64,000 nt of DNA from Escherichia coli (GTDB lineage: Bacteria; Pseudomonadota; Gammaproteobacteria; Enterobacterales; Enterobacteriaceae), in NCBI RefSeq assembly GCF_050920415.1, contig NZ_CP169309.1; one strand, written 5' to 3'. How positions within the stretch are numbered: position 1 is the first letter of the stretch; every line of letters begins with the position of its first letter. Both the position numbers and the translations under genes were made by a program. Positions 8,777 to 48,310 of the stretch are shown piece by piece. The notes beneath the pieces are model-generated. The model ran no database searches. It saw only the letters and a program-made list of their open reading frames with translations, and was not told the origin of the DNA.

Positions 8777-8810
8777 AAGATCGTGCAAATTCAATATATT
8801 GCAGGAAGTA

Positions 8811-8841
<31 letters not shown>

Positions 8842-8871: not shown

Positions 8872-10119
<1,248 letters not shown>

Positions 10120-19386: not shown

Positions 19387-19513
19387 TACTCTAAATAATT
19401 CGAGTTGCAGGAAGGCGACAAGAGAGTGAATCCCCAGGAGCTTACATAAGTAAGTGACTGGGGTGAGCGAACGCAGACGCAGCACATGCAACTTGAAGTA
19501 TGACGAGTATAAG
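19387..19513 (+). repeat. ERIC/IRU repeat (~127 bp)
   Basis: Contains gtgaatccccaggagcttacataagtaagtgactggggtgagcg; inverted copy at ~31327-31453. Confidence 0.8.
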
Positions 19514-20681: not shown

Positions 20682-20779
20682 GCCTGATGCGCTACGCTTA
20701 TCAGGCCTACACGTATCCTGCAATATATTGAATTTGCAGGTTTTTGTAGGCTGGATAAGGCGTTAAAGCCGCATCCAGT
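20682..20779. repeat. BIME: REP - L motif - inverted REP; contains an unoccupied IS621-type target ATCAGGC-CT-AC at ~20700-20710
   Basis: gcctgatgcgctacgcttatcaggcctac + cctgcaatatattgaatttgcagg + tgtaggctggataaggcg...; same arrangement as the site occupied by the IS at 8814-10094. Confidence 0.75.
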
Positions 20780-21973: not shown

Positions 21974-22609
21974 GTGTTTTCTTATTACTTTCAAGGTCTT
22001 GCTCTTGGGGCGGCTATGATCCTGCCGCTCGGTCCACAAAATGCTTTTGTGATGAATCAGGGCATTCGTCGTCAGTACCACATTATGATTGCCTTACTTT
22101 GTGCTATCAGCGATTTGGTCCTGATTTGCGCCGGGATTTTTGGTGGCAGCGCGTTATTGATGCAGTCGCCGTGGTTGCTGGCGCTGGTCACCTGGGGCGG
22201 CGTAGCCTTCTTGCTGTGGTATGGTTTTGGCGCTTTTAAAACCGCAATGAGCAGTAATATTGAGTTAGCCAGTGCCGAAGTCCTGAAGCAAGGAAGATGG
22301 AAAATTATCGCCACCATGCTGGCAGTGACCTGGCTGAATCCGCATGTTTACCTGGATACTTTTGTGGTGCTGGGTAGCCTTGGGGGGCAGCTTGATGTTG
22401 AACCAAAACGTTGGTTTGCGCTCGGGACAATTAGCGCCTCTTTCCTCTGGTTCTTTGGTCTGGCTCTTCTCGCAGCCTGGCTGGCACCGCGTCTGCGTAC
22501 GGCAAAAGCACAGCGCATTATCAATCTGGTAGTGGGATGTGTTATGTGGTTTATTGCCTTGCAGCTGGCGAGAGACGGTATTGCTCATGCACAAGCCTTG
22601 TTCAGTTAG
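21974..22609 (+). CDS. argO: arginine exporter, LysE family (211 aa)
   Basis: ORF track; GTG start. Confidence 0.9.
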
Positions 22610-22701
22610 GCGCTATCTGATGGAAAAATAAAACAGAGGCGCTAAGCTTGCCTCCAGAGGTCCTGAATTTTGGGCAAGTCAATTAACACGGAGAGACTAA
22701 C

Positions 22702-23442
22702 GTGAAGTTCAAAGTTATCGCCCTGGCGGCATTAATGGGTATTAGCGGGATGGCAGCGCAGGCTAACGAATTGCCGGATGGACCGCATATTGTCACCTCC
22801 GGTACGGCAAGCGTGGATGCGGTGCCAGACATTGCCACTCTTGCGATTGAAGTCAACGTGGCCGCGAAGGATGCCGCTACTGCCAAGAAACAGGCGGATG
22901 AGCGCGTCGCACAATACATTTCCTTCCTTGAACTCAATCAGATCGCGAAAAAAGATATCAGCTCAGCGAACTTACGCACCCAGCCAGATTATGATTATCA
23001 GGATGGTAAAAGTATCCTGAAAGGCTACCGCGCAGTGAGAACGGTGGAAGTCACGCTCCGTCAGTTAGACAAACTGAATTCCTTGCTGGATGGTGCGCTG
23101 AAGGCGGGTCTTAACGAAATTCGTTCTGTATCGCTGGGCGTGGCGCAGCCGGATGCCTATAAAGACAAAGCGCGTAAGGCAGCGATTGATAACGCGATTC
23201 ATCAGGCGCAGGAACTGGCGAACGGCTTTCATCGTAAACTAGGGCCGGTATATAGCGTGCGCTACCATGTTTCCAACTATCAGCCCAGCCCAATGGTGCG
23301 GATGATGAAAGCCGATGCCGCGCCGGTCTCAGCCCAGGAAACTTACGAGCAGGCTGCTATTCAGTTTGATGATCAGGTCGATGTGGTCTTCCAGTTAGAA
23401 CCTGTGGATCAACAACCCGCTAAAACACCTGCCGCACAATAA
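22702..23442 (+). CDS. yggE: periplasmic oxidative-stress protein, DUF541/SIMPL family (246 aa)
   Basis: ORF track; signal peptide. Confidence 0.85.
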   Translation: MKFKVIALAALMGISGMAAQANELPDGPHIVTSGTASVDAVPDIATLAIEVNVAAKDAATAKKQADERVAQYISFLELNQIAKKDISSANLRTQPDYDYQDGKSILKGYRAVRTVEVTLRQLDKLNSLLDGALKAGLNEIRSVSLGVAQPDAYKDKARKAAIDNAIHQAQELANGFHRKLGPVYSVRYHVSNYQPSPMVRMMKADAAPVSAQETYEQAAIQFDDQVDVVFQLEPVDQQPAKTPAAQ

Positions 23443-23609
23443 TACTTGTAGCCCGACGTATTGGTCGGGCTAATGCCTTTACCCGATATTGCCTCCTTTT
23501 TCTGTAATTTTCTGTAAAACCATGACGTAATCACCTATCTTTGCTCGCGGTTTCATCAAGGATAGGCTGACTGAAACGGTTAAGCGGACAAGGATGCGGG
23601 GGAGCGGGG

Positions 23610-24506
23610 ATGGACATTTTTATTTCGAAAAAGATGCGCAATTTCATTTTATTAGCGCAAACCAATAATATTGCCCGGGCGGCAGAAAAAATCCATATGA
23701 CGGCTTCGCCATTTGGCAAAAGCATTGCCGCGCTGGAAGAACAAATTGGCTATACGCTATTTACCCGCAAAGATAATAATATCAGCCTCAATAAAGCCGG
23801 GCAGGAACTGTATCAAAAACTGTTCCCGGTTTATCAACGGCTTTCTGCGATTGATAATGAAATCCATAACTCAGGACGTCGTTCACGAGAAATTGTGATA
23901 GGCATAGATAATACTTATCCGACCATTATTTTTGATCAGTTGATTAGTCTCGGAGATAAGTACGAAGGCGTGACCGCTCAGCCAGTTGAGTTCAGCGAAA
24001 ACGGCGTTATCGATAATCTTTTTGACCGTCAGTTAGATTTTATAATCTCCCCACAGCATGTATCTGCACGAGTTCAGGAACTGGAAAACCTGACTATCAG
24101 TGAACTACCACCGCTGCGATTGGGCTTTCTCGTTTCTCGCCGTTATGAAGAGCGACAAGAGCAAGAGTTGCTTCAGGAGCTACCCTGGCTACAAATGCGC
24201 TTTCAGAACCGGGCCAACTTCGAAGCAATGATTGATGCGAATATGCGTCCTTGTGGGATCAATCCCACCATTATTTATCGACCTTACAGTTTTATGGCCA
24301 AAATCAGCGCCGTGGAGCGCGGACATTTTCTGACGGTGATCCCGCATTTTGCCTGGCGACTGGTGAATCCGGCAACGCTGAAATATTTTGATGCGCCGCA
24401 CAGGCCGATGTATATGCAGGAATATCTTTATTCAATCAGAAATCATCGTTATACCGCCACGATGCTTCAGCATATTGCTGAAGATCGTGACGGGACGAGT
24501 CATTAA
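23610..24506 (+). CDS. ygfI: LysR-family transcriptional regulator (298 aa)
   Basis: ORF track; convergent with scpC, stop codons overlap. Confidence 0.8.
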   Translation: MDIFISKKMRNFILLAQTNNIARAAEKIHMTASPFGKSIAALEEQIGYTLFTRKDNNISLNKAGQELYQKLFPVYQRLSAIDNEIHNSGRRSREIVIGIDNTYPTIIFDQLISLGDKYEGVTAQPVEFSENGVIDNLFDRQLDFIISPQHVSARVQELENLTISELPPLRLGFLVSRRYEERQEQELLQELPWLQMRFQNRANFEAMIDANMRPCGINPTIIYRPYSFMAKISAVERGHFLTVIPHFAWRLVNPATLKYFDAPHRPMYMQEYLYSIRNHRYTATMLQHIAEDRDGTSH

Positions 24507-25981
24507 CCCAGCATCGAGCCGGTTGCAATTAAATTACGGTGTAAATCGAAGACGTGGCTAAGATCGTGGTGAATATGTCCGCCGGGCGCATTTTCCAGAT
24601 AGCGATGCAGATAATCCCGATACATAGGATGTGCACAATTATCAATGATGGTGCGGGCGCGTTGAAGCGGGGAAAGACCACGCAGATCGGCGATCCCTTG
24701 TTCGGTGATGATCACTTTGACGCTGTGTTCGCTGTGATCAACATGGCTGCACATTGGCACGACGGTTGAGATCTTGCCTTCTTTAGCAATCGACGGGGCC
24801 ATAAAGATCGACAGATACGCGTTGCGTTCAAAATCACCGCTGCCACCGATGCCGTTCATCAGATCGACCCCGGCTACGTGCGTTGAGTTGGCATGCCCGT
24901 AAATATCAAACTCCAGGCCGACGTTCAGAGCGATGACGCCCAGACGACGGATGATTTCCGGGTTATTGGAAATCTCCTGCGGACGCAACACAATGCGGCT
25001 GGCAAAGTAATCCATATTGTCGTAAATCTTGCGCAGGGAATCGGCCGAGATAGTCAGGCTGGAGGCGCTGGCCCCGCTGATTTTGCCCGTTTCCAGTAAA
25101 TGCACCACCGATTCCTGTAGCACTTCCGAATACATCATGAACGGAGGAATTTCCGGGTTTTCCCCTAGTCGCGCCATGACTGCATTATTGATATTGCCCA
25201 CGCCACTTTGCAGCGGCAGAAATTCCGGCGGAATACGCCCATGCGCCATTTCCTGCAACAAGAACGTGACCACGTTATCGGCAATCTGCTGGCACATGGG
25301 ATTTTGCTTATCCAGCATATTACCGGCGTCGGGCAAGTTGGTTTCCACGACGGCGACAATCTTTTTCGGATCGATTTGCACATAGCGGGTACCGACGCGA
25401 TCCATTGCATGGAAGATCGACACGCTATTGCGCCGCGGTGGCGCGCCAGGAATCACAATATCCGCCAGTTCTGCAACGCGCGGATCGTGATAGTGATTGA
25501 GTTCAATGATCACTTTCTTCGCCCGCAGCAGCCAGGTCGGCGCATTACCGATCCCGCTGGTTAACCAGACTCGACCATCCGGTGCCAGTGCCGATGCTTC
25601 AATGACGGCAACATCAATTTCGCCGAAGAAACCGTAATTGACCATTTGCGCCACTTCGCTCAAATGCAGGTCAACGAAACTCACCGCGCCCTGATTGATC
25701 TTTTTACGTAAACCGGACGATGTTTGATATGGCGCACGCCAGGAAACAGCATCGGCGTCAGAAAGTACATCGTCAGCGGCGGCGCTGATTGACGCCCCCG
25801 TCAGTAGGCGGATTTGATACGGCTTTTTGGCCTCATGCTGTTCGTTAGCTCTGCGGGCAATGGCGGTGGGAAGGGCTTTCGGCGAACCCGCCGGGGTAAA
25901 GCCGCTAAATGCCACCATGTCGTTATGCTGGATAATTTCTGCCGCTTCATCGGCGGTCATCCTTGTCCACTGAGTTTCCAT
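24503..25981 (-). CDS. scpC: propionyl-CoA:succinate CoA transferase (492 aa)
   Basis: ORF track; acetyl-CoA hydrolase/transferase family. Confidence 0.9.
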   Translation of the reverse strand: METQWTRMTADEAAEIIQHNDMVAFSGFTPAGSPKALPTAIARRANEQHEAKKPYQIRLLTGASISAAADDVLSDADAVSWRAPYQTSSGLRKKINQGAVSFVDLHLSEVAQMVNYGFFGEIDVAVIEASALAPDGRVWLTSGIGNAPTWLLRAKKVIIELNHYHDPRVAELADIVIPGAPPRRNSVSIFHAMDRVGTRYVQIDPKKIVAVVETNLPDAGNMLDKQNPMCQQIADNVVTFLLQEMAHGRIPPEFLPLQSGVGNINNAVMARLGENPEIPPFMMYSEVLQESVVHLLETGKISGASASSLTISADSLRKIYDNMDYFASRIVLRPQEISNNPEIIRRLGVIALNVGLEFDIYGHANSTHVAGVDLMNGIGGSGDFERNAYLSIFMAPSIAKEGKISTVVPMCSHVDHSEHSVKVIITEQGIADLRGLSPLQRARTIIDNCAHPMYRDYLHRYLENAPGGHIHHDLSHVFDLHRNLIATGSMLG

Positions 25982-26004
25982 TTTTACTCCTTCGTTCGCA
26001 GGGA

Positions 26005-26790
26005 TTAATGACCAACGAAATTAGGTTTACGTTTTTCGAGGAAAGCGTTCATCCCTTCCTGGTAATCTTCGCTGTCATAAACCGCGCGGCGCATCCCCTG
26101 AATACGTTCAAATTCATCGGAGTTCATGGTGTGTGCTTCGCCCAGTACACGCAGTTCTTCTTTGATAACGGCAATGGCTAACGGCGCTTTCTCAGAGATG
26201 TGATGCGCCATTTGTAAGGTGAAATCTTCCAGTTCTTCCACTTCCACAACATGGTTGAGGATGCCGACAGCCAGCGCGCGCTGGGCTGTGATTGGCGAAG
26301 CGGTAAAAATCAGCTCTTTGACAATGTGGAAGCCCGCGTCGCGGGTCAGGTTGTGAATGCCGACCAGGTTATACGGGACGCCGAGGTTTACAGGCGTCAT
26401 TGAGAAGGTTGAGGTACTGGCGGCGATGATCAGATCGGAACTCATGATCATTTCAAATGCGCCCCCCCAAACACTACCTTCCACCATCGAAATGATCGGT
26501 TTCGGGAATTTTTGGATCATGCGGGTGATTTGACGCAACGGATCATCATAGGAGAGCGGATCGCGACCGCCAGACGGCAGTTCGTGAATATCGTGACCTG
26601 CGGAGAAGACTTTGGATCCACTCGGCGTGCGCAAAATGATACAGCGAATTTCCGGCCGGTTGAGATCGCTTAATGCCTGCATAAGATCATCAATAAAAAC
26701 TTTACTTAAGGCATTAAGTTTTCGGCCATAGTTAAACTCAATGACCGCCACTTTGTTGATAGTGACAACGTTCACATACTGATAAGACAT
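26005..26790 (-). CDS. scpB: methylmalonyl-CoA decarboxylase, crotonase fold (261 aa)
   Basis: ORF 26005-26832 trimmed to ATG giving MSYQYVNVVTINKV. Confidence 0.9.
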   Translation of the reverse strand: MSYQYVNVVTINKVAVIEFNYGRKLNALSKVFIDDLMQALSDLNRPEIRCIILRTPSGSKVFSAGHDIHELPSGGRDPLSYDDPLRQITRMIQKFPKPIISMVEGSVWGGAFEMIMSSDLIIAASTSTFSMTPVNLGVPYNLVGIHNLTRDAGFHIVKELIFTASPITAQRALAVGILNHVVEVEELEDFTLQMAHHISEKAPLAIAVIKEELRVLGEAHTMNSDEFERIQGMRRAVYDSEDYQEGMNAFLEKRKPNFVGH

Positions 26791-26800
26791 AAAAATTCCT

Positions 26801-27796
26801 TTAATCAAAATATTGCGTCTGGATAAATTCACTGAGCTGTCGCAGGCCGGTGCGCGGTGAGAGCGTATTGTTTTTGACCGCTAAAAGCGTCTGGCGGTAA
26901 TAACGATCGAAATCTTCATTCGCGAACAGGTGATTCAGTACTTCTTCTTCGGTTTGTTTACGCAGCCATTCCACCGATTGTTGTTGCCGCACTTGCTGTA
27001 AACGACCACTGGCAGTTAGCGCGGTTTTGAAGTCGATGATGGCGTGCCAGATCTCATCGATTCCACGTTTTTCCAGTGCGCTACAAGTCAGAACTCGTGG
27101 CTGCCATTCGTCGTATTTACGTCGCAGAATATGCAGGGCACTCTCGTACATATGCCGGGCAATGGCGACATTGGTATGGTTATCGCCATCGTCTTTGTTG
27201 ATAACGATCAGATCTGCCACTTCCATCAGCCCCTTTTTAATCCCCTGCAGATCATCGCCGCCACCGGCAATTTGCAACGAGATAAAACAGTCCACCATGC
27301 GGGCGACTTCCGTTTCCGACTGTCCGACGCCAACCGTTTCGACAATCACTACGTCATAACCCGCCGCTTCGCATAACAGCATTAATTCCCGCGCTCGCTG
27401 ACTGGCACCGCCCAGATGGCCGGAGGATGGTACCGGGCGAATAAACGCCGCCTCGGCACGCGCCAGGTCATTCATGCGGGTTTTATCCCCGAGAATGCTA
27501 CCGCCAGTGACCGGGCTGCTGGGATCGACCGCAATAACCGCAACCTTTAGTCCCTCACGAATCAACAACATGCCAAAGGCTTCAAGAAAGGTACTTTTCC
27601 CCGCGCCGGGTGTGCCGGTAACACCCAGTCGCAGGGCGTTACCACAGAACGGCATAATGGCATCAAGCAGTTGCGTACTTAGCGCCTGATGACGCGGGTG
27701 ACGGCTTTCCACCAGCGTCATGGCCTGGGCGAGCGTGGCACGCTCACCCTGACGTAAGCGGCGAATACTTTCTGCCAGCGTGGCTTCATTAATCAT
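26801..27796 (-). CDS. argK: MeaB/ArgK-type GTPase, methylmalonyl-CoA mutase chaperone (331 aa)
   Basis: ORF track; P-loop GTPGAGKST. Confidence 0.9.
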
Positions 27797-29933
27797 GATG
27801 CTGGCTTATCAGATTCAGTACGTCGCGCACGCTGTCGAGCATAGGCGTACCTGGACCATAAATCGCCACCACGCCGCGCTCCTGCAGGAAGGCGTAATCC
27901 TGCGGCGGAATGACGCCACCCGCGACCACGCAGATATCTTCGCGTCCCCATTTTTTCAGCGCTTCGACCAGTTCCGGGATCAGCGTTTTATGACCGGCAG
28001 CCAGTGAAGATGCGCCCACTACGTGAACGTCGTTTTCTACTGCCAGGCGGGCGATCTCTTCAGGTGTAGAGAACATCGGGCTTAAATCTACGTCGAAACC
28101 GAGATCGGAATAGGCGCTGGCGATCACTTTCGCGCCGCGATCGTGCCCATCCTGGCCCATTTTGGCGATCAGAATGCGCGGGCGACGACCATTGTCGGCA
28201 AGGAACTGCTCCGTTTGCGCAACAATGGCATCGAACTCGGAGGCCGATTTCTCAGACTGATGATAGCTTTGCGCAATCACGCCGGTAACACACTGGCTTG
28301 GCACCAGATAACGGTCGAAAGCGGCTTCCAGCGCATCGGAAATTTCACCCAGGGTGGCGCGAACGCGAGCGGCATTAACAGCGGCAGCCAGCAGGTTTTC
28401 GTTATGCTGTGCGGCGTGAGTCAGGGCGTTCAACGCGGCGGTTACGGCGGCATCATCACGGGTGGCGCGAATGCGTTCCAGCGAAGCAATTTGCTCGTTA
28501 CGCACCATCACGTTGTCGATCTCAAGTACATCGGTTTCGTCTTCGTGATCCAGTTTGTACTTGTTGACACCAACGATGACACGCTTGCCCTGGTCGATCA
28601 ACGACTGTTCGCGCGCGGAGGCCTCTTCGATCATTCGTTTTGGCAGACCTGCTTCGATCGCTTTCGCCATACCTCCGGCTTCGTCGATCTGTTGGATAAT
28701 GGCTCTGGCTTGTTTGACGATTTGATCGGTCAGCGATTCAACGTAATAGGATCCGGCCAGTGGATCGACGGTGCGGCAGAGTTCTGATTCTTCCTGAATG
28801 ATGATCTGGGTATTGCGGGCAATGCGTGCTGAGAAATCGGTAGGCAAACCAAGCGCTTCATCAAAGGCGTTGGTATGCAGTGACTGAGTACCGCCCAGCG
28901 TTGCAGCCAGTGCTTCAATGGTGGTGCGGATAACGTTGTTATACGGATCCTGTTCAGTCAGGCTCCAGCCTGAGGTCTGGCAGTGGGTACGCAGCGCCAG
29001 TGATTTCGGATCCTGTGCGCCAAATCCACTGACCGCTTCGCTCCATAAATAACGTGCCGCACGCAACATGGCGACGTTCATAAACAGATCCATGCCAATG
29101 CCGAAGAAAAACGACAGGCGAGGAGCGAAGTCATCAATTTTCAGCCCAGCGGAGATTGCTGCTTTGATGTACTCAATCCCATCAGCGAGCGTAAATGCTA
29201 CCTGCTGCACGCAGTTGGCACCCGCTTCACCCATATGGTAACCGCTGATACTGATGGTATTAAAGCGAGGCATGTTGCCAGAACACCAGGCAATGATGTC
29301 AGCAATAATGCGCATTGACGGTTTCGGCGGGTAAATATAGGTGTTGCGGCAGAGATACTCTTTGAGGATATCGTTCTGAATGGTGCCTGTCAGTTTATCG
29401 GGCGTAACTCCTTGCTCTTCTGCGGCGACGATATAAAACGCCAGTACGGGTAACACTGCGCCATTCATGGTCATCGAAACCGACATTTTATCCAGCGGGA
29501 TCTGGTCGAACAGGACTTTCATATCTTCCACGGTGTCGATAGCAACGCCCGCTTTGCCGACGTCGCCCGCCACGCGCGGGTTATCGGAGTCGTAGCCACG
29601 GTGGGTGGCAAGGTCAAACGCAACGGAAAGACCTTTTTGCCCGGCGGCCAGGTTACGGCGATAAAAAGCGTTAGACTCTTTTGCTGTCGAGAAACCGGCA
29701 TACTGACGGATAGTCCACGGTTGGGCGGTATACATAGTGGCACGCGGGCCACGAACGTAGGGTGGCAAACCAGGAAGGGTACCGGTCACTTCCAGATTAT
29801 CGAGATCGGCTTCAGTATACAGCGGCTTGATGGCGATCCCTTCTGCGGTTTGCTGAACCAGCGAGTCGACAGTTTTCTCCCGACGGCTCAATTCCTTGTT
29901 GGCAAGCTGTTGCCACTCCTGCACGTTAGACAT
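27789..29933 (-). CDS. scpA: methylmalonyl-CoA mutase (714 aa)
   Basis: ORF 27789-29954 trimmed to ATG giving [14 protein letters not shown]. Confidence 0.9.
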
Positions 29934-30136
29934 TATTTGCTCCATAAAACGCAATCAAAATGAGGGTATTTGCGCTTACGGTGAGCTTTTTACGTGGGTT
30001 TGTCGCCAGCAAAAAAAATGCATTCAGACGTCGTTTTTTGCCGCCTGAGATTTGTCTATTTTGTGATGTGATTCAAGGAATACAAAAAGAACTGGAGGTG
30101 ATGCCTGGTATGTATTACCAGGCATTATTTGATGGA

Positions 30137-31030
30137 TTATTCCTGACGAAGAACTTTGTGACCATAATCGAGCAACGCATCAGTGACTTTACGCATCATG
30201 CGGCTTTCAGGAGCAAAGCGGTGCCAGTAGAGCATCCGGCGTTGAAATAGCCCTGGCGTTAAGTCAATCAGTTCGCCGCTGGCCAGTTCTTTCTCGATTT
30301 GCAGATGTGGGATCATACAGCAGGTGGTCCCCTGACGAGCAAGTTGCACGAACGCTTCTGAAGAATTAACGATATGGCAGGGTACGCTGCCTGGAGGCAG
30401 ATCAAAGTTTTGCTGCAAAAAGGCCTGGTGCATATCATCAAGATGGTCAAACGCGACCACTGGCGCTTTCAGTAATGCCGAACGCGTTACGCCGTTAGGG
30501 AAATATTTTTCGGCGAACGGTTTTGAGCTGACGAACAGATAGTCGAGCGCACCGAGCTTATCGACAAGACAACTCGGTAGCGCCTGATGTTGAATACTCA
30601 CCGCGCCGACCACTTCGCCGCGACGCAGACGTTCCTGAGTGCGGGTTTCATCTTCTACCTGCAAGTTGAGGCGGATAGGCGAATCAGCTAACACAGGAGC
30701 CAGCGCCGGAAGCAACCACGTCGCCAGACTGTCAGCGTTGACCGCCAGTGAAAGCAGCAGCGGAGTTGAACCGGTTTGTTCATCGCCCAGCCACTCTTCT
30801 TCCAGTAACTCCACCTGGCGTAGCAGTGCCAGCAGTTTTTGCCCTTGTTCCGTCGGGCGCGGCGGTACGGTACGCACCAACAGCGGCTGCCCGAACATAT
30901 TTTCCAGTTGCTTAATGCGCTGTGAGACGGCTGATTGTGTAATGCACAGCTTTTGTGCCGCGCGCTCAAATCCTCGTTCACGTATCACCGCATCCAGTGC
31001 CTGTAATGTTCTGTAGTCCGGGCGTTTCAT
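30137..31030 (-). CDS. argP: LysR-family regulator ArgP/IciA (297 aa)
   Basis: ORF 30137-31096 trimmed to ATG giving [21 protein letters not shown]. Confidence 0.9.
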
Positions 31031-31326
31031 TGCTGTTGTCTGCTCCTGGTAAATGCTTTTTCCTGCACTATGACACAATTTTGCGTCAGGTTGCATATAC
31101 CGAAGCCGTCGGCGGGTACATTTGTATCAGTGGTTAAACACGCAGCTTAAAAGATCAGGGATTTGCGCTATTGCATTTCGCTCAGCGAGTTCGCGCCCTG
31201 GAGCGGCATACCCAGACCTTTATATGCTTTGTTTGCGGGGCGAAAGGGGATGCCCGCTATTGCACGATATTTTATGGATGAGGTAACCACGCGACTTGCC
31301 AACGGGGTCTGAATCGCTTTTTTTGT

Positions 31327-31453
31327 ATATACTCGTCATACTTCAAGTTGCATGTGCTGCGTCTGCGTTCGCTCACCCCAGTCACTTACTTCTGTAAGCT
31401 CCTGGGGATTCACTCTCTTGTCGCCTTCCTGCAACTCGAATTATTTAGAGTAT
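31327..31453 (-). repeat. ERIC/IRU repeat, inverted relative to copy at 19387-19513
   Basis: Reverse complement matches the 19.4-kb copy over ~125 bp. Confidence 0.8.
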
Positions 31454-31490
31454 AATGCGTGTGAAATTTCATACCACAGGCGAAACGATC

Positions 31491-32150
31491 ATGACGCAGG
31501 ATGAATTGAAAAAAGCAGTAGGATGGGCGGCACTTCAGTATGTTCAGCCCGGCACCATTGTTGGTGTAGGTACAGGTTCCACCGCCGCACACTTTATTGA
31601 TGCGCTTGGCACGATGAAAGGCCAGATTGAAGGGGCTGTTTCCAGTTCGGATGCGTCCACTGAAAAACTGAAAAGCCTCGGCATTCACGTTTTTGATCTC
31701 AACGAAGTCGACAGCCTTGGCATCTACGTTGATGGCGCAGATGAAATCAACGGCCACATGCAAATGATCAAAGGCGGCGGCGCAGCGCTGACCCGTGAAA
31801 AAATCATTGCTTCGGTTGCGGAAAAATTTATCTGTATTGCAGACGCTTCTAAGCAGGTTGATATTCTGGGCAAATTCCCGCTGCCAGTAGAAGTTATCCC
31901 GATGGCACGTAGTGCAGTGGCGCGCCAGCTGGTGAAACTGGGCGGTCGTCCGGAATACCGTCAGGGCGTGGTGACCGATAACGGCAACGTGATCCTCGAC
32001 GTCCACGGCATGGAAATCCTGGACCCAATAGCGATGGAAAACGCCATAAATGCGATTCCGGGCGTGGTGACTGTTGGCTTATTTGCTAACCGTGGCGCGG
32101 ACGTTGCGCTGATTGGCACACCTGACGGTGTCAAAACCATTGTGAAATGA
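31491..32150 (+). CDS. rpiA: ribose-5-phosphate isomerase A (219 aa)
   Basis: ORF 31455-32150 trimmed to ATG giving [18 protein letters not shown]. Confidence 0.95.
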
Positions 32151-32405
32151 TCTGACGGGGGAATCTCCCCCGTTAAAAAAATTCTCTTCGTTAAATTTGG
32201 TGACATGTGTCACGTTTTTACCTGGCTATTGTCGATTGCTCTAAATAAATCCTCTAATCCAGCATATTCATCCAAGAAAAACCTTTGCGTGATATTTCCT
32301 CAACATCGCGACGCAAACGTTCATATTGCCGCAATATTATTTTTTGATATGTTGAAAGGCGGATGCAAATCCGCACACAACATTTCAAAAGACAGGATTG
32401 GGTAA

Positions 32406-33638
32406 ATGGCAAAGGTATCGCTGGAGAAAGACAAGATTAAGTTTCTGCTGGTAGAAGGCGTGCACCAAAAGGCGCTTGAAAGCCTTCGTGCAGCGGGTTA
32501 CACCAACATCGAATTTCACAAAGGCGCGCTGGATGATGAACAATTAAAAGAATCCATCCGCGATGCCCACTTCATCGGCCTGCGATCCCGTACCCATCTG
32601 ACTGAAGACGTGATCAACGCCGCAGAAAAACTGGTCGCTATTGGCTGTTTCTGTATCGGAACAAACCAGGTTGATCTGGATGCAGCTGCAAAACGCGGGA
32701 TCCCGGTATTTAACGCACCGTTCTCTAATACGCGCTCTGTTGCGGAGCTGGTAATTGGCGAACTTCTGCTGCTATTGCGCGGCGTACCGGAAGCCAACGC
32801 TAAAGCGCACCGTGGTGTCTGGAACAAGCTGGCAGCTGGCTCTTTTGAAGCGCGCGGCAAAAAGCTGGGTATCATCGGCTATGGTCATATTGGTACACAG
32901 TTGGGCATTCTGGCTGAATCGCTGGGAATGTATGTTTACTTTTATGATATTGAAAACAAACTACCGCTGGGCAACGCCACTCAGGTACAGCATCTTTCTG
33001 ATCTGCTGAATATGAGCGATGTGGTGAGTTTGCATGTGCCAGAGAATCCGTCCACCAAAAATATGATGGGCGCGAAAGAGATTTCGCTAATGAAGCCCGG
33101 CTCGTTGCTGATTAATGCCTCGCGCGGAACGGTGGTGGATATTCCGGCGCTGTGTGACGCGCTGGCGAGCAAACACCTGGCAGGTGCGGCAATCGATGTC
33201 TTTCCGACGGAACCGGCGACCAACAGCGATCCGTTTACTTCGCCGCTTTGCGAGTTCGACAACGTCCTTCTGACGCCACATATTGGCGGTTCGACTCAGG
33301 AAGCACAGGAGAATATCGGCCTGGAAGTTGCGGGTAAATTGATCAAGTATTCTGACAATGGCTCAACGCTCTCTGCGGTGAACTTCCCGGAAGTCTCGCT
33401 GCCACTGCACGGTGGGCGTCGTCTGATGCACATCCACGAAAACCGTCCGGGCGTGCTGACTGCGCTGAACAAAATCTTTGCCGAGCAGGGCGTTAACATC
33501 GCCGCGCAATATCTGCAAACTTCCGCCCAGATGGGTTATGTGGTTATCGATATTGAAGCTGATGAAGACGTTGCCGAAAAAGCGCTGCAGGCAATGAAAG
33601 TTATTCCGGGCACCATTCGCGCCCGTCTGCTGTACTAA
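32406..33638 (+). CDS. serA: D-3-phosphoglycerate dehydrogenase (410 aa)
   Basis: ORF track. Confidence 0.95.
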   Translation: MAKVSLEKDKIKFLLVEGVHQKALESLRAAGYTNIEFHKGALDDEQLKESIRDAHFIGLRSRTHLTEDVINAAEKLVAIGCFCIGTNQVDLDAAAKRGIPVFNAPFSNTRSVAELVIGELLLLLRGVPEANAKAHRGVWNKLAAGSFEARGKKLGIIGYGHIGTQLGILAESLGMYVYFYDIENKLPLGNATQVQHLSDLLNMSDVVSLHVPENPSTKNMMGAKEISLMKPGSLLINASRGTVVDIPALCDALASKHLAGAAIDVFPTEPATNSDPFTSPLCEFDNVLLTPHIGGSTQEAQENIGLEVAGKLIKYSDNGSTLSAVNFPEVSLPLHGGRRLMHIHENRPGVLTALNKIFAEQGVNIAAQYLQTSAQMGYVVIDIEADEDVAEKALQAMKVIPGTIRARLLY

Positions 33639-33839: not shown

Positions 33840-33990
33840 AAAGCCCTCACCGAAGCGAGGGCTTGAAGGAGAAGGGTTATGATGCGACTCGTCATCATAC
33901 TGATTGTACTGTTACTCATAAGTTTCCCAGCTTATTAACAGTCAGTCACAGGGGAGGAGCAATCCTCCCTTACCCTTACTCACTAAATTA
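33840..33990 (-). ncRNA. sibC: Sib-type antisense sRNA (antitoxin) overlapping ibsC; ends approximate
   Basis: Established arrangement for Ibs/Sib loci; hairpins flank the ibs ORF on both sides. Confidence 0.45.
33879..33938 (+). CDS. ibsC: type I toxin Ibs, 19-aa hydrophobic peptide
   Basis: Manual translation MMRLVIILIVLLLISFPAY; below ORF-track size cut-off. Confidence 0.65.
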   Translation: MMRLVIILIVLLLISFPAY

Positions 33991-34038
33991 GGTCAAAGAA
34001 TCAACGATGTCAATCAGGGCGATGCAGGTGTGTCGCCC

Positions 34039-34659: not shown

Positions 34660-34845
34660 AGGGAATCTCCGAGATGCCGCCGCAGGCTGTAACCCTTGAA
34701 CCCTTGGTTCAAGGTGAATGTGTCGTCACAGTTTTAAGGCTTCTCGGACGGACCGAGCATGCTCACCAACCGCGGAGCGCCACATTCTTGTGGTATGAAA
34801 TATCGGCTCAGGGGACTGGCCCGCTTGCGAACATCTCAGAGAAAT
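34660..34845 (-). ncRNA. ssrS: 6S RNA
   Basis: Reverse complement reads atttctctgagatgttcgcaagcgggccagtcccctgagccgatatttcatacc...ggagattccct, matching my recollection of E. coli 6S RNA. Confidence 0.9.

Positions 34846-48144: not shown

Positions 48145-48310
<166 letters not shown>

Follow-up and report, generated by a model that had tools for sequence, protein, structure and literature searches.

The scpA-argK-scpB-scpC operon of Escherichia coli, also called the "sleeping beauty mutase" or sbm-ygfDGH operon, is a well-studied textbook locus. With adenosylcobalamin as cofactor, ScpA catalyses the reversible conversion of succinyl-CoA into (R)-methylmalonyl-CoA. ArgK (YgfD), a GTPase of the MeaB type, attaches to the mutase and protects the loading of its cofactor; the old name is misleading, as the protein is no kinase of arginine transport. 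The decarboxylase ScpB, which has a crotonase fold and needs no biotin, forms propionyl-CoA from methylmalonyl-CoA, and ScpC moves CoA from propionyl-CoA to succinate such that propionate is released and succinyl-CoA is regenerated. E. coli has no de novo B12 synthesis, and the operon is dependent on imported B12. The K-12 operon is reportedly associated with the work of Haller et al. 2000 and Froese et al. 2009. A description of the pathway, together with its caveats, is available (PMC3850637, PMC5512728).

The locus considered here lies in a 64-kb window (the whole stretch of DNA that was analysed) and is almost certainly the chromosomal E. coli scpA-argK-scpB-scpC operon, intact and at its usual site between argP and srsR. 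The operon of K-12 MG1655 (b2917–b2920; sbm-ygfD-ygfG-ygfH) has the same genes in the same order, with equal lengths, identical start and stop codons, and the same overlaps and gaps, and it has the same neighbours, with argP upstream and a convergent srsR downstream. The first-pass annotation had regarded the block as known biology, which the usual chromosomal context and near-identity to the K-12 operon bear out.

Organization and Integrity of the Operon

Four open reading frames occupy positions 24503-29933 on the minus strand, in exact agreement with the outer limits proposed earlier:

27789-29933, minus strand: scpA (sbm), adenosylcobalamin-dependent methylmalonyl-CoA mutase, 714 aa from the annotated ATG
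26801-27796, minus strand: argK/ygfD/meaB, MeaB-type G3E GTPase chaperone of the mutase, 331 aa
26005-26790, minus strand: scpB (ygfG), biotin-independent crotonase-fold methylmalonyl-CoA decarboxylase, 261 aa from the annotated ATG
24503-25981, minus strand: scpC (ygfH), propionyl-CoA:succinate CoA-transferase, 492 aa

All four genes start with ATG, end with TAA, and contain no internal stops. Mechanically called frames extend further upstream for scpA (to a TTG at 29954) and scpB (to a GTG at 26832). From argP to srsR the genes follow one another on one strand with minimal spacing: the start of argK overlaps the stop of scpA by 8 nt (ATGATTAA), 10 nt separate argK from scpB, 23 nt separate scpB from scpC, and the scpC stop overlaps that of the convergent srsR by 4 nt. 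The order, strand, and tight spacing claimed for these genes are thus as described. Owing to the overlaps, the 10-23 nt gaps, and the lack of an internal terminator or promoter signal convincingly above chance, the four genes are probably co-transcribed as one mRNA, and their spacing is compatible with translational coupling.

Every one of the four proteins passes its curated NCBIfam cut-off, and the family models are matched over full length with E-values from 1e-146 down to 0, too low for the pattern to be due to chance. The exact sequences of all four are already in public collections and are named accordingly. The assigned identities (mutase, MeaB-type GTPase, decarboxylase, and CoA transferase) are upheld by the family models, the motifs, and the K-12 comparison; a check against K-12 detected no frameshift or truncation in any of the four genes. 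Hidden genes on the opposite strand were considered and rejected: none of the six longest plus-strand ORFs there, the largest of 214 aa, matches Pfam at E ≤ 0.01, and they are for this reason treated as antisense artefacts of the coding frames.

The Mutase and Its Chaperone

ScpA scores 1252.1 bits against the NCBIfam equivalog NF006944 (cut-off 876) over residues 10-720 of its 721-aa ORF and matches human MMUT (4.8e-278) and Propionibacterium shermanii MutB (1REQ_A, 8e-271) in the PDB. Tyr78, Arg196, and His233 fall in the same aligned columns as MutB Tyr89, Arg207, and His244 (1REQ numbering), its substrate-site residues. The cobalamin-binding DGHDRG sequence at 595-600, a DxHxxG motif with the cobalt-ligating histidine, aligns with the motif in 1REQ_A and human MMUT. 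Relative to b2917 of K-12, the protein has equal length and four substitutions (H27Q, I398V, V537A, and A689V). With only 4 of 714 residues different, ScpA would be expected to carry out the B12-dependent conversion of succinyl-CoA to (R)-methylmalonyl-CoA known for the K-12 protein.

ArgK is encoded next to the gene of its client mutase. It exceeds the NF006958 equivalog cut-off (494.5 bits versus 329), matches the E. coli YgfD structure 2P67 across residues 1-331 (2.5e-218), and differs from its K-12 counterpart by two residues. Its GTPase motifs comprise a P-loop (GTPGAGKS, 61-68), switch II (ETVGVGQ at 153), and the NKxD motif for GTP specificity (NKDD at 200).

The Decarboxylase and the CoA-Transferase

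ScpB is assigned by NCBIfam equivalog NF008506 (485.3 bits, cut-off 257) and by matches of ~1e-172 to the E. coli structures 1EF8/1EF9 and 6N92 over residues 1-261 (5e-172 for 1EF8). Residue 66 is a histidine and residue 140 a tyrosine; His66 and Tyr140 are the known active-site residues, reportedly described by Benning et al. 2000.

ScpC passes both TIGR03458 (YgfH_subfam, 754.7 bits, cut-off 658.7) and NF053853 (ScpC, 602.3 bits, cut-off 500), and its score of 709.5 against the butyryl-CoA:acetate equivalog lies below that model's cut-off of 740. The catalytic Glu286 is found in the sequence SEVLQ, and the GxGGxxD motif is present as GIGGSGD at 377-383. Its PDB relatives include 2NVV and the succinyl-CoA:acetate CoA-transferase AarC (4EU3). 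Three residues differ from the K-12 protein.

Divergence from K-12 and the Nearest Genome

Compared with K-12, the window operon carries allelic differences only, among them Ala55Thr in ScpB, with a compensatory change in a hairpin stem upstream (see below). Nucleotide identity is 97.3-98.6%, with 58, 26, 11, and 22 nucleotide differences in scpA, argK, scpB, and scpC and 4, 2, 1, and 3 amino acid differences, respectively, for a total of 10 in 1798 residues. The dN/dS values of the four genes are 0.022, 0.025, 0.028, and 0.047, not more than a few-fold from the range (0-0.016) of the housekeeping genes that flank them. The operon is under strong purifying selection.

The closest complete genome is that of E. 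coli MFDS1022581 (NZ_CP169399.1), in which positions 833961-897960 are collinear with the whole window. Its annotation holds the same four-gene block at matching coordinates, and its operon (858463-863893) is identical save for a single SNP. Outside the operon, the two sequences differ by eight synonymous or intergenic SNPs and by a +1/-1 indel pair in IS621. The SNP within the operon is the following:

26628, minus strand: scpB codon 55, GCG (Ala) to ACG (Thr), a rare nonsynonymous SNP

The Upstream Spacer

Two features precede scpA:

29934-30136, minus strand: argP-scpA spacer, 203 nt, presumed operon promoter and leader, with the scpA ribosome-binding site (GGAG) at its end
30101-30125, minus strand: 10-bp hairpin (RNA fold) just past the argP stop, between argP and the operon

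K-12 has a spacer of equal length, from which that of the window departs at 13 positions, 11 of which are in the argP-proximal 50 nt and 2 in the scpA-proximal ~150 nt. The operon promoter presumably lies here. A promoter consensus scan returned no site inside the spacer, the nearest being at 30164-30136 in the end of argP; the scan as a whole is uninformative, with 5 promoter-like sites observed and 7.9 ± 2.7 expected by chance, as is that for terminator-like sites (13 observed, 9.6 ± 3.3 expected). The argP-proximal hairpin folds with -15.7 kcal/mol (z = -4.68), a value reached by none of 200 shuffles, and its stem shows a compensatory G:C to A:T change relative to K-12. This hairpin is a putative terminator.

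Neither a cobalamin riboswitch nor any other known RNA was matched ahead of scpA; at the gathering threshold, Rfam returned nothing in the region or close to it, and its matches in the window are limited to SibC, 6S, naRNA4, and two copies of ES036. Regulation by the adjacent LysR regulator SrsR (YgfI) is unsupported, since the SrsR paper makes no mention of scpA, scpC, sbm, or methylmalonyl (PMC9181523).

Functional Status of the Operon

Intact frames leave room for a functional defect, and the candidate is ScpB Ala55Thr, the single ScpB difference from K-12. Of the 9 SNPs between the window and the closest complete genome, no other is nonsynonymous. Position 55 is Ala in 87 of 88 full-length orthologue cluster representatives (53-99% identity), Ser in one, and Thr in none, and the exact 61-mer around the SNP occurs in 0 of 4282 complete E. 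coli genomes holding scpB. If the substitution disabled the decarboxylase, the operon of this strain would be intact in frame and broken at step 2, a reading to which this near-invariance, the absence of the allele from complete genomes, and its standing as the sole coding change all lend some weight. Nevertheless, it is very unlikely: the exchange of Ala for Thr is modest, one orthologue tolerates Ser, and residue 55 is not among the known catalytic residues, His66 and Tyr140, both of which are intact. The allele, moreover, persists on at least 7 public contigs that carry the exact protein, which also rejects a sequencing error as its source. There is a very small chance that, within a small E. 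coli clade, Ala55Thr could alter decarboxylase activity or the preference for (R)- or (S)-methylmalonyl-CoA; the operon would then be broken at step 2, or its need for an epimerase changed. The earlier statement that the genes are intact therefore holds with the qualification that the near-invariant position 55 is altered, which is not a truncation, and that an intact frame does not by itself prove full ScpB activity.

A complete operon does not mean a complete pathway. The first-pass annotation had credited the locus with all four genes of the succinate-to-propionate pathway; the four genes are present, and the pathway part follows the model of Haller et al. 2000, in which the matter of an epimerase is disputed. 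One study argues that the operon lacks a methylmalonyl-CoA epimerase (PMC5512728). On that account the genes are rightly named, and the operon is not a self-sufficient route from succinate to propionate, serving instead other propionyl-CoA/methylmalonyl-CoA metabolism such as amino-acid degradation. The cycle would not close because the mutase yields (R)-methylmalonyl-CoA, and the (S) form is reportedly the one that the decarboxylase uses. Propionate formed from glucose only once a heterologous epimerase from P. acidipropionici had been supplied, and expressing the operon raised amino-acid degradation (PMC5512728); in addition, no epimerase gene is annotated within the 64-kb window. Against this stand the in vitro coupling of ScpA and ScpB by Haller et al., from succinyl-CoA to propionyl-CoA (recounted in PMC5512728), and several engineering studies that obtained propionate or 1-propanol from the operon alone (PMC3850637 among the sources). 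The epimerase count, furthermore, covers the window, and a gene elsewhere in the genome is possible. Taken together, lack of self-sufficiency is a tentative reading with a real, if less than even, chance of being correct. The operon might also be an evolutionary relic that is silent, useless without B12 synthesis, and in the process of being lost. The literature portrays it as silent or barely expressed natively (PMC3850637), and most of it is gone from 1152 of 5425 complete E. coli genomes (~21%), CFT073 among them, which keep only a 5′ fragment of scpA joined to the final ~150 nt of scpC; strain MB51 has undergone an independent, IS1-associated loss. Because about a fifth of genomes keep only such deletion remnants, intactness is a lineage trait. 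A relic is nonetheless unlikely, as dN/dS stays at 0.02-0.05 with a synonymous divergence of about 0.06-0.11 per site, which is unlike neutral decay, all four frames keep their exact length across lineages, and the scpA-proximal 150 nt of the spacer are nearly unchanged from K-12.

The locus matters little as a discovery, being a textbook operon whose every protein sequence is already deposited. It provides a clean annotation anchor that places the window on the E. coli chromosome, in collinearity with the part of K-12 near 3.06 Mb, and the operon is of some relevance to engineering metabolism toward propionate, 1-propanol, and odd-chain products. A small puzzle is that it is conserved under purifying selection in about four-fifths of complete E. 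coli genomes, yet is poorly expressed, B12-dependent, and possibly without an epimerase.

Comparison with Other Known Systems

Beyond K-12, the mutase and its chaperone can be set against P. shermanii MutAB (1REQ), human MMUT-MMAA (8GJU), and Methylobacterium extorquens MeaB (2QM7). ScpA aligns with MutB and MMUT over about 680-700 residues, with conservation of the DxHxxG motif and of the substrate-site Tyr, Arg, and His, and ArgK is homologous to MeaB and MMAA (about 1e-90 to 1e-77). Unlike P. shermanii MutAB, ScpA is a single chain of the large-subunit type, and no MutA-type small-subunit gene lies beside scpA. The context also differs from that of the MutAB and MMUT systems, in that the sbm operon is set for decarboxylation to propionyl-CoA rather than for anaplerosis or the Wood-Werkman cycle. 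Over its entire length, ScpC can be aligned with Acetobacter aceti AarC (4EU3) and related class I CoA-transferases (about 1e-130) and has the catalytic Glu and GxGGxxD in common with them. Its assigned substrate pair, propionyl-CoA and succinate, differs from that of AarC, and it passes the YgfH subfamily model.

Organization of the Operon

On all defining features tested at the sequence level, this is the known E. coli scpA-argK-scpB-scpC operon. The ORF list for window positions 22000-33000 contains four ORFs in a row on the minus strand, and together they span exactly the limits given in the first-pass annotation, which had placed a complete, tightly spaced methylmalonyl-CoA operon at 24503-29933.

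Genes of the operon
24503-25981, minus strand, scpC, 492 aa
26005-26790, minus strand, scpB, 261 aa from the annotated ATG (longest ORF 26005-26832, opening at the earliest possible GTG, 275 aa)
26801-27796, minus strand, argK/meaB, 331 aa
27789-29933, minus strand, scpA, 714 aa from the annotated ATG (ORF from a TTG 27789-29954, 721 aa)

The spacing is indeed tight: the end of scpA runs 8 nt into the start of argK (ATGATTAA), followed by gaps of 10 nt (argK-scpB) and 23 nt (scpB-scpC). A Shine-Dalgarno-like AAGGA or GAAGGAG lies ahead of each downstream gene, and the spacing is compatible with translational coupling. Co-transcription of the operon, its promoter, and flux in vivo are presumed. 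A Pfam search of the longest plus-strand ORFs within the region gave no match.

Identity of the Encoded Proteins

The assigned gene identities are borne out by curated NCBIfam models, above whose cut-offs all four proteins score end to end.

NCBIfam matches of the four proteins
ScpA, methylmalonyl-CoA mutase, NF006944, 1252 bits (cut-off 876)
ArgK, MeaB GTPase, NF006958, 494.5 bits (cut-off 329)
ScpB, methylmalonyl-CoA decarboxylase, NF008506, 485 bits (cut-off 257)
ScpC, succinate CoA transferase, TIGR03458 (YgfH subfamily), 754.7 bits (cut-off 658.7)
ScpC, succinate CoA transferase, NF053853 (ScpC), 602 bits (cut-off 500)

ArgK matches the E. coli YgfD structure 2P67 end to end (2.5e-218), as does ScpB the E. 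coli YgfG structures 1EF8 and 6N92 (~1e-172), while ScpA matches human MMUT and MutB (1e-278 to 1e-270) and ScpC matches 2NVV and AarC 4EU3. Two historical misnomers, "argK" and "LAO/AO transport kinase", remain attached to PDB 2P67. None of the functional residues checked in the four proteins is missing. ScpA Tyr78, Arg196, and His233 occupy the alignment columns of P. shermanii MutB Tyr89, Arg207, and His244, and its cobalamin-binding DGHDRG lies at 595-600. ArgK carries the P-loop GTPGAGKS (61-68), ETVGVGQ (153), and NKDD (200), and ScpC carries SEVLQ with Glu286 and GIGGSGD at 377-383. ScpB has His at 66 and Tyr at 140, reported as functional residues of this enzyme (Benning et al. 2000).

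The exact sequences of all four proteins are already public under the expected names, on 92 contigs for ScpA, at least 1000 each for ArgK and ScpC, and 7 for ScpB.

Pathway Chemistry

As established for these families (PMC3850637, PMC5512728), ScpA uses adenosylcobalamin to isomerize succinyl-CoA to (R)-methylmalonyl-CoA, ArgK/YgfD serves the mutase as its MeaB-type GTPase partner, ScpB decarboxylates methylmalonyl-CoA to propionyl-CoA without biotin, and ScpC transfers CoA from propionyl-CoA to succinate. The first-pass annotation had called the operon complete; the four genes are present and intact, but whether they make a complete pathway is contested over an epimerase. It is argued in PMC5512728 that the mutase produces (R)-methylmalonyl-CoA, whereas the (S) form is the one on which the decarboxylase is reported to act, and conversion of glucose to propionate in minimal medium was seen there only once a heterologous epimerase was added. 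The requirement is contested because Haller et al. saw coupled ScpA-ScpB conversion in vitro, as recounted in the same paper. According to PMC3850637, expression of the operon is very low, and cobalamin is neither synthesized nor required by E. coli.

Flanking Regions and Regulation

The 203-nt argP-scpA spacer equals that of K-12 in length and differs from it at 13 positions, 11 of which fall in the argP-proximal 50 nt and only 2 in the scpA-proximal ~150 nt. Conservation of the latter segment would fit a regulatory role. A consensus promoter scan found nothing in the scpA-proximal spacer, with an overall site count below chance, and Rfam detected no riboswitch or other family in or adjoining the operon. 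Within the argP-proximal 50 nt, directly after the argP stop, lies a 10-bp hairpin (30101-30125; ΔG -15.7 kcal/mol, z = -4.7), in whose stem a G:C pair of K-12 is replaced, by compensatory change, with A:T. Because the T-run comes only ~14 nt later, the hairpin does not qualify as a canonical intrinsic terminator.

At the other end, scpC and srsR converge and share 4 nt at their stop codons (24503-24506), as in K-12, so that a terminator cannot fit between them; transcription of either gene therefore runs antisense into the other unless terminated within coding sequence. The operon goes unmentioned in the SrsR paper.

Beyond argP, a 250-bp stretch between argP and rpiA (31201-31451) finds no counterpart by BLAST in K-12 or CFT073, both of which carry a yqfE (LysR-fragment) remnant at this site instead. 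It includes an ERIC/IRU core (31370-31413, minus strand, 1 mismatch to consensus); another ERIC core, this one perfect, is located between pgk and fbaA (19426-19469). Rfam matches elsewhere in the window are the known small RNAs and repeats SibC antitoxin (opposite ibsC), 6S RNA, naRNA4, and two ES036/CssrF elements (33863-34013, 34662-34845, 48150-48227, 20703-20745, and 8777-8820).

Distribution among E. coli Genomes

Megablast of 24000-30500 found matches in 5,425 of 5,426 complete E. coli genomes, and all full-length hits among the matches listed are annotated scpA, meaB, scpB, scpC, and srsR. At least 80% of the operon is covered in only 4,273/5,425 genomes, and scpB sequence occurs in 4,282. 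The intactness of the operon is a lineage property and not a given, because ~21% of complete genomes (1152/5425), including CFT073, keep only remnants and strain MB51 lost it separately. In the remnant, ~0.9 kb from the 5′ end of scpA, itself carrying small internal deletions, is joined to the final ~150 nt of scpC; the CFT073-type deletion spans roughly window 24657-28914. The MB51 loss is IS1-associated and also took most of srsR. Of the 5,435 places matched by the operon in this search, one lies on a record labelled plasmid.

Comparison with the Nearest Genome and K-12

The closest complete genome, MFDS1022581 (NZ_CP169399.1, 833961-897960), is collinear with the whole 64-kb window, and its four genes map exactly onto the window coordinates. 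The two differ by 9 SNPs and one +1/-1 indel pair (~9163 and ~9296) inside a copy of IS621 (IS110 family; 8921-9900), whose transposase is frameshifted with a longest ORF of 215 aa. The pair could be homopolymer-length sequencing differences.

Of the 9 SNPs, one falls in the operon, at 26628; it gives ScpB Ala55Thr, and none of the other eight is nonsynonymous. Among 88 aligned full-length orthologue cluster representatives (53-99% identity), 87 have Ala at position 55, 1 has Ser, and none has Thr, and the exact 61-mer around 26628 is absent from all 4,282 complete genomes with scpB. Sequence error as its source is ruled out by the 7 public contigs that encode the identical protein; Ala55Thr is thus a real, rare allele. 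A functional effect of the substitution is given only a low probability.

K-12 MG1655 has the same layout: argP, scpA (b2917), argK (b2918), scpB (b2919), scpC (b2920), and convergent srsR/ygfI. The claim of intactness held up under the frameshift and truncation check against this reference, as each gene has equal nucleotide length and ATG and TAA in both genomes, with no internal stop in any of the four. Nucleotide differences number 58, 26, 11, and 22 for scpA, argK, scpB, and scpC, and amino acid differences 4, 2, 1, and 3, respectively. The corresponding dN/dS values (Nei-Gojobori) are 0.022, 0.025, 0.028, and 0.047, with dS of 0.06-0.11; those of flanking housekeeping genes are 0-0.016. 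Given these ratios, the four genes are under strong purifying selection in lineages that retain them. With its K-12 layout and already public proteins, the four-gene operon is, as first described, known biology.
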